From assembly GCF_003991155.1 (NCBI RefSeq), contig NZ_CP031293.1: a stretch of 64,000 nt of DNA. The stretch is one strand, 5' to 3'. The position numbers are program-made. Numbering within the stretch: the first letter of the stretch is position 1; the number at the start of each line of letters is the position of its first letter. The stretch comes from Escherichia coli. GTDB lineage: Bacteria > Pseudomonadota > Gammaproteobacteria > Enterobacterales > Enterobacteriaceae. Positions 27,001 through 30,000 of the stretch are shown here, in pieces.

Positions 27001-30000
27001 TGAACGCTCATGAGGATACGGCTATAGCGGATATCCCAACGCTTGATAAATCAGAGCTGCAAGCAGCGGAGCAGATGGTTAAGGCACTTGGTGGTAAAGA
27101 GAATATTAAATCCCTGGATAATTGCGTAACTCGTTTACGTTTAACAATCGCAGATATGGGATTGATTGACGAGGCAGCAATAAAAAGAGCTGGCGGAATT
27201 GCGGTTGTTAAACTTGATCAAAATACCCTACAAGTCATTATCGGTACTAAAGTCATCGCCTTGCGTCGGGATATGGATAACTACATGGGGATATGCTGAT
27301 GGATGTTTTTAATACTCCTGTTTCCCGCAAAGGAACATATTGTACCCAATGGGACTTTTGCGAGGACAGATTTGGTGTAAAAGATGTATTACCATTCTCT
27401 ATTTCAGATATGGATCTTCCGATACCGGAAGCTATCATCAGGGCATTAAGAAAACGTCTGGAACACCCGATTTTAGGGTACAGTCGTTGGCAACATGGTG
27501 AATATCTGAATGCGATAGTAAACTGGTATTATCAACAATATCAAACAGATATTAAACCTGAATGGATAACCTATAGCCCCAGTGTGATGTACTCTATTGC
27601 AAAAGCAATAGAGTTATTGACATCGCATGGTGATAATATTCTCGTTTTTACACCTGTCTATAATGCATTTTTTGATGTAATTAAACATAGCGAGCGAAAT
27701 ATTCTGACAGCCTCTTTGATTATAAAAAATGAGGGGGGCTACGCTATCAACTGGCAAGATTTTGATCTTAAGATTAAAAGCGCAAAGATGGTGTTATTAT
27801 GTAATCCTCATAACCCGACAGGAACAGTCTGGTCGGAAGAAGAACTGCATAAAATCGCTGCAAGCTGTACAAGGCATAATGTCTGGTTATGTTCAGATGA
27901 AATCCATAGTGATTTTGTTTTTAATCGTAGCTTTACATCCGCGCTTAAAATAAAAAAAGAAAAAGTAGTAGTATTTAACTCGATATCGAAAACATTTAAT
28001 GTTCCTGCACTAACAGGATCGTATATGATTTCAACTGACGATAATTTTAATCATAAGTTCAGAACGATATCGAGGTATCGCGATTTTGTAAACTCCCCAT
28101 CAGTACTGAATATAATTGCAACTATTATTGCCTATAACGAATGTGAGGGATGGTTAAAGTCATTAAAGGCACATATTGCCTCTAACATTCAATTCACCCA
28201 GCAGTATCTGAATGAAAATATTCCAGAATTGATCGTAAGGCCAGCTGATGGTTGCTATTTTTCCTGGATAGATTGTTCTGCTATTGGTTATCCTTTTGAT
28301 GAATTTTACAGTCGATTAATTCATGAAGGCAAAGTGGGCATTATGGCGGGGCATGTCTATGGAACGGAGGGGGAGGGCTACCTTCGTCTGAACCTGGCCT
28401 GCGGTCGAGAAAAATTATATATGGGGCTTACGCGTCTTGTGAGTGTAATTAAAAATATTAATCAGGGAGAATAAAAATGAATAACACGGATCTTATCTAT
28501 CTCATTAAACATTTTATGCATAACGAACTTAAAGCAGTAGAAGAGGTTATTGATTCCCCACTTTCTGAATTCGCTAATTTAATTAAAGTATTACAATCTT
28601 GTCAGGGAAAAGTTGTTTTTATTGGTGTTGGTAAGTCCGGTATTATTGCCCGAAAACTCGCAGCAACTTTTGCCAGTACCGGAACTCCCTCGTTTTTTGT
28701 TCACGGTACGGAAGCGGTACACGGCGACCTTGGAATGGTGGCGAAAGACGATGTTGTTATTCTTATTTCAAACAGTGGTGAGACGGCGGAAATCCTGGCG
28801 ATACTGCCTAGTCTGAAAAAAATGGGTAATTATTTGATCTCTTTTACCCGCAGTCATCACTCATCGCTTGCGATAAGTTGTGATTTATCTGTTGAAATCC
28901 CCGTCAAAAGTGAGGCGGATAATTTAGGTTTAGCACCGTCATGCTCGTCGACTGTTGTTCTGGTTGTTGGTGATGCGGTGGCGCTTGCACTCTCTGAATT
29001 GAAAAAATTTACTCGTGCTGATTTCGGCTTATATCATCCAGGAGGTGCACTCGGCATTAAAGCAAATTCATAATTTCAAAATATAAATACAGTAACCGGT
29101 CACGCCATCTTTTGGGGTGGCGTTCTTTGAAGTGAGTGTCCGCTATGAAAAATGTTCTGGTCACCGTCCCCAGCTTTTCAGCACGCTGTGTTTCCGCCAG
29201 CAAGTTGCTAAGAGAGAATAATTTTAATCTTATTATTAAGAATAATGTGGAGCATCTGCTTAAATCAGAATCCACTGCATTACGAGAATCTATTTGCGCG
29301 GTCATCGCCGGAAAAGATTGTTATCAGGCGGACACGCTATCATTGCTGTCTGGTGTGAAAATAATATCGAGATTCGGGACGGGGATAGACAATATTGATC
29401 TTCGTGCGGCACAGCAATCAGGTATTATTGTCAATAATGCGGTTGGGATTAATTCAAATGCGGTTGCGGAATTTATCATTGGACTTATCTTCGCGAGCAT
29501 GAGAAATATCCCCGGTAGCTATCATGCGATGCAAAATGGCTACTGGGGTGAGTCGCATGGCTGCGAGTTACAAGGTAAACGTATTGGCCTGCTTGGCTAC
29601 GGCAATATTGGCAAAACACTGGCGAAAAGGTTATCTGGTTTTGATGTTGAGCTTTTAGCTTTTGACAAACAACCCGACTATCAGGTTGCTGACAAAGCTG
29701 GAGTTCAGTTTGTATCAATTGAAGATATCTTTATGCAGTCGCATGTCATCATTGTTCTTTTGCCTTTTTCTTCTGAGCTGGAGAACTTTATTAGTCATAA
29801 ATATTTGTCGATGATGCGCAATGGTGCTCTGATCATCAATGCCGCAAGGGGAAAGTTGCTGGATGAGGGCGCTTTACTTCAGGTGATTGAAGAACGAAAT
29901 GTGTTTGCGGCGCTGGATGTGTTTAGCTCTGAACCGTTGGCGCAATTTAGCCCACTGCTACATGCCAAAAATATCATTACAACGCCGCATATCGCGGCAG

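Follow-up and report, generated by a model that had tools for sequence, protein, structure and literature searches.

Introduction

Arabinose-5-phosphate isomerases (APIs) of the KdsD/GutQ/KpsF type consist of a SIS domain followed by a C-terminal tandem CBS pair of ~130 aa. Shorter proteins of ~200-220 aa, with the SIS domain only, are represented by the API of B. fragilis (PDB 3ETN), which has a role in Kdo synthesis, and by a SIS protein from Listeria (PDB 3FXA). The B. fragilis enzyme serves as the API positive control in complementation assays. Closest to the locus analyzed here is c3406 of E. coli CFT073, which encodes a 198-aa protein without CBS domains and is the fourth gene of a five-gene operon adjoining amiC. 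This operon has been described as c3405-c3410, inside PAI-CFT073-metV, and the type VI secretion cluster of CFT073 lies within the same PAI-metV (32-kb). Mosberg et al. (2011, J Bacteriol 193:2981) are credited, by the title of their paper and by the papers that cite it, with showing A5P/Ru5P isomerase activity for the CFT073 protein. In a 2026 genome paper, the five genes are still grouped with features lacking characterization, and the SIS gene is assigned to the modification of lipid A with L-Ara4N. A similar operon is known from C. difficile (CD3031-CD3027: licT, malX, malY, SIS, EIIA-Glc); its genes are co-regulated, and the MalY enzyme encoded there acts in vitro as a cysteine desulfhydrase.

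In this work, we analyzed a 64-kb stretch of E. coli DNA (contig NZ_CP031293.1, hereafter the window), in which a stand-alone SIS isomerase had been predicted. The observation was confirmed, and its interpretation is supported. The finding is correct but not new, as biochemical and crystallographic work on c3406 exists already. With a probability of about 0.8, we consider the gene to encode a single-domain API, as an allele of c3406, and to stand fourth in a PTS operon that is induced by its substrate and feeds the pentose-phosphate pathway. This reading builds on the near-identity to c3406 and to the crystallised protein, on the domain content and conserved active site of the protein, and on the anatomy and conservation of the operon.

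Results

Organization of the locus

When the window was compared to K-12 by blastn, homology stopped at 24603 and restarted at 31242. The accessory segment found there stands in place of the 73-bp amiC-metV spacer of K-12 and, without its insertion sequence, is 5.57 kb long. The GC content of the cassette (24700-30100) is 40.5%, as compared to 52-53% in the flanks. The features of the locus are the following:

24606-31241, no strand: accessory segment, bounded by the amiC stop codon and by the first tRNA-fMet gene at its 3' end (blastn vs. K-12, GC)
24778-24806, + strand: RAT-like antiterminator target, outer limits approximate (motif match)
24796-24852, + strand: predicted leader terminator, hairpin 24796-24843 followed by nine U at 24844-24852
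24863-25687, + strand: BglG/LicT-family antiterminator, CAT RNA-binding domain and PRD, 274 aa (NCBIfam LicT 1.5e-67, GlcT 1.9e-53)
25719-27299, + strand: PTS EIICB of the glucose family, MalX-like, 526 aa (TIGR02004 PTS-IIBC-malX, 1.2e-161)
27299-28474, + strand: PatB/MalY-family PLP-dependent C-S (beta) lyase, 391 aa (TIGR04350, score 364.5, curated cut-off 340)
28477-29073, + strand: single-domain SIS gene, 198 aa, allele WP_001066236.1 of c3406 (Pfam, PDB and NCBIfam matches, alignments)
29145-30092, + strand: D-isomer-specific 2-hydroxyacid dehydrogenase, PGDH-like, 315 aa (NCBIfam)
30117-31186, + strand: ISApl1, IS30 family, 1070 bp, outside the cassette proper (IS30 transposase, 3.4e-92)
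31243-31539, - strand: three tRNA-Met (CAU) genes, metV, metW and metZ (ARAGORN; Rfam tRNA, 61.4 bits each)

The cassette therefore reads, in order, RAT-like leader with terminator, antiterminator (named 'PRD domain-containing protein' in RefSeq), EIICB, PatB/MalY lyase, SIS protein and dehydrogenase. With EIICB and antiterminator genes upstream, the SIS gene does lie inside a PTS operon, as had been proposed. The gene content of the cassette does not include an EIIA gene. The NCBIfam matches of the dehydrogenase, such as PGDH (1e-63) and glyoxylate reductase (1.3e-48), were all under the curated cut-offs; this is an accessory gene, missing in the Enterobacter and clostridial cassettes.

ISApl1 is flanked by a 2-bp target duplication ('AT', at 30115-30116 and 31187-31188), is an exact insertion when set against strain 2016C-3878, and shares 99.9% identity with plasmid-borne elements annotated as ISApl1. 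The tRNA genes, which encode initiator tRNA according to the K-12 annotation, mark the attachment side of the island. In an Rfam scan of the locus, the leader had no match; apart from the three tRNAs, there was just a single sRNA match, below threshold. This match falls within ISApl1, scores 27.7 bits where the gathering score is 45, and was taken as chance.

The leader region

The core of the RAT-like motif, TGTAACTGTTAAATCAGGCA (24781-24800), presumably resembles the RAT consensus of LicT, SacY and GlcT. It overlaps the 5' arm of the terminator and occurs a single time in the window, at the cassette leader. The motif was also observed beside orthologous genes in CFT073, in another E. coli, in C. 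difficile (four copies) and in Terrisporobacter (two copies). The predicted terminator, missed by an automatic terminator scan because of its long loop region, was found by folding (-28.8 kcal/mol, z = -5.67, none of 200 shuffles equally stable). In Atlantibacter and Enterobacter the terminator stems have another sequence, with complementarity kept. The layout of BglG/LicT-type RAT antitermination is thus present, as judged from sequence: a CAT-PRD gene and a predicted RAT that overlaps a putative intrinsic terminator.

The SIS protein is a single-domain enzyme

The SIS ORF, on the + strand, runs from an ATG at 28477 to a TAA at 29071-29073 and is preceded, 8 nt upstream, by an AGGGAG Shine-Dalgarno sequence, which bears out the 198-aa reading frame of the original prediction. 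All three motifs named there were found in the protein: the phosphate-binding loop (GVGKSG, residues 50-55), SNSGET (98-103) and HPGGALG (187-193). The only domain assigned by Pfam was SIS (PF01380, E = 4e-26, residues 41-170), without any CBS domain. None was detected either downstream of the gene, where positions 28900-29500 were translated in the three forward frames and the next gene was scanned. Hidden or frameshifted CBS domains were rejected on this basis; the next gene (29145-30092) is that of the D-2-hydroxyacid dehydrogenase. In the alignment the chain ends five residues past HPGGALG, where K-12 KdsD and GutQ run on for ~130 residues.

The supposed likeness to KdsD, GutQ and KpsF also holds, on the basis of alignment, NCBIfam and PDB matches. 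The SIS protein is 49% identical to KdsD and 38% to GutQ over the homologous SIS domain, with the GKSG loop and the active site kept; its gene lies in a PTS sugar operon, that of KdsD in the Kdo/Lpt cluster. The top NCBIfam matches were KdsD (2.4e-59), KpsF/GutQ (2.7e-57) and GutQ (1.2e-49), each covering only the first 152-201 profile positions. RefSeq names the protein after the KpsF/GutQ family TIGR00393. The match spans no more than positions 1-152 of the 268 in this profile, which keeps the score (194.4 bits) under the curated cut-off (203.7); the architecture of this family is SIS plus a tandem CBS pair, and the SIS protein, having no CBS, falls outside it. The KdsD and GutQ equivalogs were both missed (NF008141, 201 bits vs. 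a cut-off of 505; NF008581, 169 vs. 481). Among structures, the SIS domain of KdsD (2XHZ) matched with E = 2.2e-41, well outside what chance would give. The B. fragilis and Listeria proteins aligned over nearly their full length, HPGGA included, with scores far below that of KdsD (3ETN, E = 7.6e-30; 3FXA, E = 1.2e-30), and their genomic contexts are unlike that of the SIS gene.

Residues K53, H82, E105, E146 and H187 align with K59, H88, E111, E152 and H193 of KdsD, which we take from structural work on KdsD to be its catalytic residues. The offset is a constant 6, in agreement with the coordinates of the KdsD profile match (18-195 to 24-201). All five residues are invariant in ten aligned sequences and, in a further alignment, in the proteins of C. 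difficile and Terrisporobacter as well.

Identity with c3406

The SIS protein is identical to CFT073 WP_001066223.1 (old tag c3406) at 196 of 198 positions, the changes being Y8H and I109T, and equally so to PDB 5UQI/5VHU (196/198; E = 1.5e-124 for 5UQI). Both sites are variable among homologs and neither is catalytic, according to the alignment. The CBS-less isomerase of a UPEC locus that had been mentioned in the prediction is hence an ortholog of this gene: the five genes recur in CFT073 at the identical junction on the amiC side, and the SIS gene agrees with the amiC/metV location of c3405-c3410 in gene order and flanks. The two loci differ further on, since in CFT073 the operon is separated from the tRNA-Met genes by a type VI secretion cluster, whereas here the tRNA genes come directly after the operon, save for the ISApl1 insertion. 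Another literature match to 'c3406' turned out to be the name of a metagenome contig, unrelated to the gene.

Distribution of the cassette

Of 5426 complete E. coli genomes, 1688 (31%) carry the SIS gene. Genomes with the cassette include bovine, poultry, wastewater and river isolates, and the cassette is not UPEC-specific; on this point the original prediction has to be corrected. The four-gene core (antiterminator, EIICB, PatB, SIS) is also present in Atlantibacter, Enterobacter, C. difficile (CD3031-CD3028) and Terrisporobacter, where transketolase genes come after the cassette. Beyond the Enterobacteriaceae, the nearest relatives of the SIS protein are all Firmicute proteins in sugar-utilisation contexts. 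These contexts are not uniform: a SIS-only relative in Mammaliicoccus lies in a LacI-SIS-PfkB kinase-MFS cluster, and in Lactobacilli the SIS gene adjoins an operon with a Gat-type PTS, DHDPS and KDPG-aldolase. Among the Firmicute loci, the cassette is present only in the clostridial ones, which were reached via PatB homologs. Some E. coli and Shigella encode PatB and SIS fused in frame into one protein.

Discussion

On the basis of the literature on the CFT073 protein, the allele described here should have API activity. It would interconvert D-arabinose 5-phosphate and D-ribulose 5-phosphate by an aldose-ketose (enediol) mechanism, with Lys53, His82, Glu105, Glu146 and His187 as the likely catalytic residues, His187 presumably being supplied by the adjacent subunit of the oligomer. 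In the operon, the LicT-type antiterminator would bind the leader RAT and block termination while the MalX-like EIICB transports its substrate; the imported phosphorylated compound would be processed by the PatB/MalY lyase, and the SIS enzyme may pass the resulting pentose phosphate, as A5P converted to Ru5P, to the pentose-phosphate pathway. We infer this direction of flux, and the coupling of the SIS enzyme to PatB, from the evidence considered below.

The original prediction had offered two roles, isomerisation of an imported sugar phosphate and supply of A5P, and we lean towards the former. The co-conserved core, the co-regulation of its clostridial genes, the transketolase neighbours, the Firmicute sugar clusters and the PatB-SIS fusions are evidence for a catabolic role, as far as gene content and context can indicate. 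The fusions could also be tolerated accidents, arising from a short deletion or frameshift in overlapping genes, instead of a sign of coupling. The dehydrogenase is outside the conserved core and without a place in the catabolic scheme. The scheme also has a gap, in that we know of no route by which the substrate of a glucose-family PTS would yield, by way of a C-S lyase, a pentose 5-phosphate; no chemically complete route was found when we tried to deduce the PTS substrate from the gene content of the cassette. A deletion of c3406 in CFT073 reportedly caused no colonisation defect, and so supplies no phenotype that would link the enzyme to a pathway.

A biosynthetic enzyme, induced in the presence of the PTS substrate and providing spare A5P for the Kdo of LPS or capsule beside KdsD, GutQ and KpsF, would explain why the active site is that of KdsD and why the cloned c3406 gene reportedly rescues API-deficient E. 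coli. A review, too, describes the enzyme as supplying LPS precursor synthesis. However, E. coli already has KdsD and GutQ, and no gene of the cassette is Kdo-related. Moreover, the cassette and an equally conserved SIS site are found in C. difficile and Terrisporobacter, Gram-positive bacteria without LPS that make no Kdo, which favours catabolism over A5P supply for LPS, and the Firmicute affiliation and sugar-utilisation contexts of the nearest relatives outside the Enterobacteriaceae speak against Kdo supply as well. We therefore hold this explanation to be distinctly unlikely.

API activity might instead be a side activity of an enzyme whose true substrate is another phosphosugar, such as the product of PatB, on which it would act as isomerase, deglycase or etherase. 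Other SIS proteins in PTS operons have such roles, the product expected of a glucose-family EIICB is a hexose-type 6-phosphate and not a pentose phosphate, and the single-domain Listeria relative (3FXA) reportedly acts on glucose 6-phosphate; the close association of PTS, PatB and SIS genes in different phyla, and the fusions seen in some genomes, would fit as well. Etherases and deaminases do exist among SIS proteins, but here these families, like hexulose isomerases, gave matches weaker by at least 35 orders of magnitude. The catalytic and phosphate-binding motifs of KdsD are all invariant, clostridial orthologs included, which argues for an identical or very similar substrate and makes a different one rather unlikely. 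A regulatory function, with A5P made or removed to set the level of a signal controlling the operon, has its analogy in GutQ, an API that closes the PTS operon srlAEBD-gutM-srlR-gutQ of a pathway without need of A5P; a regulatory role of GutQ in the glucitol operon has reportedly been proposed. Nevertheless, this operon already has a complete, conserved control by PRD antiterminator and RAT/terminator, and no A5P-sensing component is evident in it, so that we regard such a function as very improbable.

Within the catabolic reading that we prefer, the core cassette may represent one pathway exchanged between Clostridia and Enterobacteriaceae for a gut or urinary sugar-amino acid conjugate, a speculative and, on balance, unlikely proposal. 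The sugar would sit on the beta-carbon of the amino acid, O- or S-glycosyl serine or cysteine being examples. Once the conjugate has entered through the PTS, PatB would free the phosphosugar by beta-elimination (with pyruvate and ammonia) and not by hydrolysis, and the SIS enzyme would hand it to the pentose-phosphate pathway. If true, the MalX/MalY pair, long without an explanation, would gain its first physiological role, and so would the APIs of Gram-positive bacteria. As a discovery the gene carries little weight, considering that the enzyme was characterised in 2011, has a PDB structure and is encoded in about one third of complete E. coli genomes. The conservation of four genes across phyla, on the other hand, narrows the question of its physiology and argues for catabolism rather than LPS synthesis.

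Among known systems other than c3406, the C. difficile operon and the cassette share the order antiterminator-EIICB-PatB/MalY-SIS and RAT-like elements 5' of the PTS gene; the EIICB here is 69% identical to its CD3030 homolog, and CD3028, a 'putative phosphosugar isomerase' of 199 aa, is 49% identical to the SIS protein and shares its invariant residues. The C. difficile operon differs in ending with its own EIIA-Glc gene, in being without the dehydrogenase, and in having four RAT-terminator units in tandem between licT and malX, whereas the single unit here precedes licT. The K-12 malX-malY pair likewise joins a glucose-family EIICB to a PatB/MalY C-S lyase, but identity to MalX and MalY is just 42% and 37%, SIS and dehydrogenase genes are absent, and control is exerted by the LacI-type repressor MalI instead of an antiterminator.

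Organization of the Operon and of Its Leader

Homology with the K-12 chromosome stops at the stop codon of amiC (24603) and restarts at 31242, where the first gene of a group of three tRNA-fMet genes has its 3' end. The accessory segment in between has a GC content of 40.5%, as compared to 52-53% in the flanks, and contains the following features:

24781-24800, RAT-like site TGTAACTGTTAAATCAGGCA in the leader, overlapping the 5' arm of the terminator hairpin
24796-24843, leader hairpin (-28.8 kcal/mol, z = -5.67) with a run of nine U residues after it
24863-25687, LicT/BglG-type antiterminator (profile match)
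25719-27299, glucose-family PTS EIICB, closest to MalX
27299-28474, PatB/MalY C-S lyase (score above the curated cut-off)
28477-29073, + strand, SIS gene with ATG start, 198 codons and TAA stop at 29071-29073
29145-30092, PGDH-like D-2-hydroxyacid dehydrogenase
30117-31186, complete ISApl1 (IS30 family, 1070 bp), with the target duplication AT at 30115-30116 and 31187-31188

Since the five genes abut or are at most 71 nt apart, their arrangement is consistent with a single operon. The motif TGTAACTGTTAAATCAGGCA resembles the sites (RAT) recognized by antiterminators of the LicT/SacY/GlcT type. It has no second occurrence within the 64 kb of the window, but is present again in the equivalent leaders of CFT073 and of another E. 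coli. The leaders of Atlantibacter and Enterobacter show a near-identical RAT-like sequence (1-3 bases different) and terminator stems of another sequence in which complementarity is kept. From these leader features, antitermination in response to the operon's own PTS substrate is the most likely mode of induction. No EIIA gene is contained in the E. coli operon, which for this reason presumably uses the EIIA-Glc of the host. A short GC-rich hairpin (24703-24725) was also observed inside the accessory segment, some 100 nt past the stop codon of amiC; it may be the amiC terminator, replacing the one located in the 73-bp spacer of K-12.

Comparison of the SIS Protein With c3406

The original prediction described a stand-alone SIS domain, recognizable by three motifs and ending before the CBS region. 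In a Pfam search the 198-aa protein gave a single SIS domain, PF01380, at residues 41-170 (E = 4e-26), whereas CBS was not detected, and the motifs GVGKSG, SNSGET and HPGGALG were located at residues 50-55, 98-103 and 187-193, respectively. The chain stops 5 residues past HPGGALG, unlike K-12 KdsD and GutQ, which in the alignment are about 130 residues longer. The possibility that a CBS domain lies in an extended frame was also checked: none was found in any frame downstream of the SIS gene, where the next gene is that of the dehydrogenase. The ATG is preceded by a ribosome-binding site (AGGGAG) 8 nt upstream. All parts of the prediction that concern the ORF and its domain hold. Among the NCBIfam profiles, those scoring best are KdsD (2.4e-59), KpsF/GutQ (2.7e-57) and GutQ (1.2e-49), each match being restricted to the N-terminal 152-201 profile positions and below its curated cut-off. 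Given its score below the cut-off and the missing CBS pair, the protein is, strictly speaking, no member of the KpsF/GutQ family (TIGR00393), despite its RefSeq name.

A full-length match (E = 1.5e-124, 2 differences) was obtained between the SIS protein and the 198-aa 'phosphosugar isomerase' of PDB entries 5UQI and 5VHU. On the CFT073 chromosome the same five genes adjoin amiC, and the SIS protein encoded there (WP_001066223.1), which by eye has the same sequence as the PDB chain, is identical to that of the window at 196 of 198 positions, the differences being Y8H and I109T. The window allele, WP_001066236.1, is common to many genomes with 100% identical operon DNA. In the older annotation of CFT073 these genes are c3405-c3410, a conserved set in PAI-CFT073-metV named as a 'PTS system, maltose/glucose specific' cluster.

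The KdsD residues K59, H88, E111, E152 and H193, which we take to be catalytic, align with K53, H82, E105, E146 and H187 of the window protein, with a constant offset of 6 that agrees with the KdsD profile coordinates. All five are invariant in an alignment of 10 sequences and in a second one of 5 sequences including C. difficile and Terrisporobacter. The window protein shares 49% of its residues with the SIS domain of KdsD, and 38% with GutQ. Both substituted sites vary naturally (Y/H/S/Q at position 8, I/T/L/P at position 109) and neither is catalytic, so there is no reason to expect an altered function with respect to c3406. The gene is a c3406-type single-domain arabinose-5-phosphate isomerase (API) on every feature testable here. 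The gene itself is already known and adds nothing new. According to Mosberg et al. (2011), the recombinant c3406 protein reportedly has API activity and lacks the CBS pair of the other E. coli APIs; its operon is said to appear to import and use a carbohydrate of unknown identity, and a c3406 deletion strain reportedly still colonises the mouse urinary tract.

Distribution, Fusions and the ISApl1 Insertion

Of 5426 complete genomes of E. coli, 1688 have the SIS gene, in one copy each and with nucleotide identities of 90-100%, and 1685 have the whole operon. The carriers come from humans, cattle, poultry, pets, wastewater and rivers; the cassette is therefore not uropathogen-specific. One copy is plasmid-borne, and E. 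coli NZ_CP172818.1 has only a partial copy, 78% identical and without annotated feature. When 24606-31241 of the window is compared with 1-29819 of the CFT073 locus, the PTS operon of CFT073 is seen to be separated from the tRNA-Met genes by a complete type VI secretion cluster, whereas the window has only the 5.6-kb operon. This difference indicates a modular make-up of what the literature calls 'PAI-metV'.

In some E. coli and Shigella assemblies the PatB and SIS proteins are fused in frame, giving proteins of 550-592 aa (P0122-P0125, P0129, P0130). The fusion genes occupy positions 5001-6695 in each of the two loci L016 and L017. In L016 the product has 564 aa, with PatB residues 1-377 joined to SIS residues 7-198, and this exact protein is found on 18 contigs. 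The fusion could represent either a functional coupling or a tolerated deletion at an overlapping gene boundary.

The single ISApl1 copy of the window separates the dehydrogenase gene from the tRNA-fMet genes and is 99.9% identical to plasmid copies. Since ISApl1 mobilises mcr-1, this gene may be, or may once have been, present in the source strain; no mcr gene is present in the 64-kb window. ISApl1 aside, a single base in 45.5 kb distinguishes the window from strain 2016C-3878.

Possible Function of the SIS Enzyme

Near-identity to a characterised and crystallised protein, together with the fully conserved active site, makes the assignment as an A5P/Ru5P isomerase, a SIS oligomer with an enediol mechanism, well supported. 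As to the physiological role, we infer a catabolic one and favour it, considering that Gram-positives that make no Kdo have retained the cassette together with an unchanged active site. The enzyme would link the product of the PTS and the PatB lyase to the pentose-phosphate pathway. The split transketolase genes directly downstream of the cassette in Terrisporobacter, as well as the PatB-SIS fusions, hint in the same direction. Against this scheme, we know of no route by which a C-S lyase would convert a substrate of a glucose-family PTS into a pentose 5-phosphate, and the dehydrogenase, which has no assigned step, also counts against it. A rival explanation, a spare supply of A5P for Kdo, is weakened by the existence of clostridial cassettes and by the fact that E. 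coli already has KdsD and GutQ. That API is a side activity, the true substrate being a different one, is made less likely by the invariance of the KdsD-type site, and no feature supports a signalling role such as that once proposed for GutQ.

The peptidase genes often found near PTS-linked PatB genes in other bacteria (see below) give a hint that such PatB enzymes might act on sugar-amino-acid or sugar-peptide conjugates; that this very cassette catabolises a sugar-amino-acid conjugate, with the lyase releasing a phosphosugar, seems to us rather unlikely. The literature searched offered no solution for the substrate and pathway of the operon. In a 2026 comparative genome paper (PMC12928451), the five genes form region 'GR 19', one of the uncharacterised features listed there, and L-Ara4N modification of lipid A is put forward as the role of the SIS gene. 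This reading does not fit an A5P/Ru5P isomerase, and the 2011 characterisation was overlooked there.

Related Cassettes in Other Bacteria

Outside Escherichia, the closest proteins are SIS-only and of about 200 aa, with identities of 83-85% in Atlantibacter and Citrobacter, 62-65% in Enterobacter and 50-60% in many Firmicutes. The Firmicute SIS-only proteins are at least as similar to the window protein as E. coli KdsD. Some of the Firmicute copies belong to unrelated sugar clusters: the neighbours of the SIS gene in lactobacilli are a Gat-type PTS and genes for a DHDPS-like protein and a KDPG aldolase, and Mammaliicoccus lentus has the arrangement LacI-SIS-PfkB kinase-MFS transporter. PatB/MalY-family genes were also observed beside PTS transporters of various families in Clostridium intestinale (L020), Peribacillus (L021) and Granulicatella (L022), often accompanied by M42, M24 or M20 peptidase genes.

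The cassette of Atlantibacter occupies the same amiC-mltA site, whereas that of Enterobacter is at another site and lacks the dehydrogenase. A search with the PatB protein led to loci of Clostridioides difficile and Terrisporobacter mayombei, where the order antiterminator-EIICB-PatB/MalY-SIS is as in E. coli and is followed by an EIIA-Glc gene. The contents of the Enterobacter and clostridial cassettes therefore define a conserved core of four genes, with the dehydrogenase and EIIA as accessory ones. The window EIICB (25719-27299) is 69% identical to that of C. difficile (L014, 5431-7005), as compared to 42% to K-12 MalX; this value and the low GC (40.5%) suggest that the cassette was transferred fairly recently between Firmicutes and Enterobacteriaceae.

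In C. difficile the corresponding genes, CD3031-CD3027, called a 'putative glucose-maltose PTS', show a joint 15- to 25-fold decrease in vivo when fliC is mutated and are among the most biofilm-induced genes, and the MalY of this operon is a cysteine desulfhydrase in vitro. In the gap between the antiterminator and PTS genes of C. difficile (L014, 5000-5400) we found four tandem RAT-like elements (GGATTGTAACTG...GCAGGCAAAACCTAA), about 104 bp apart and all with a hairpin and T run resembling a terminator behind them, whereas the E. coli cassette has one RAT/terminator unit, in front of the antiterminator gene; a serial antitermination leader of the C. difficile type is unusual.
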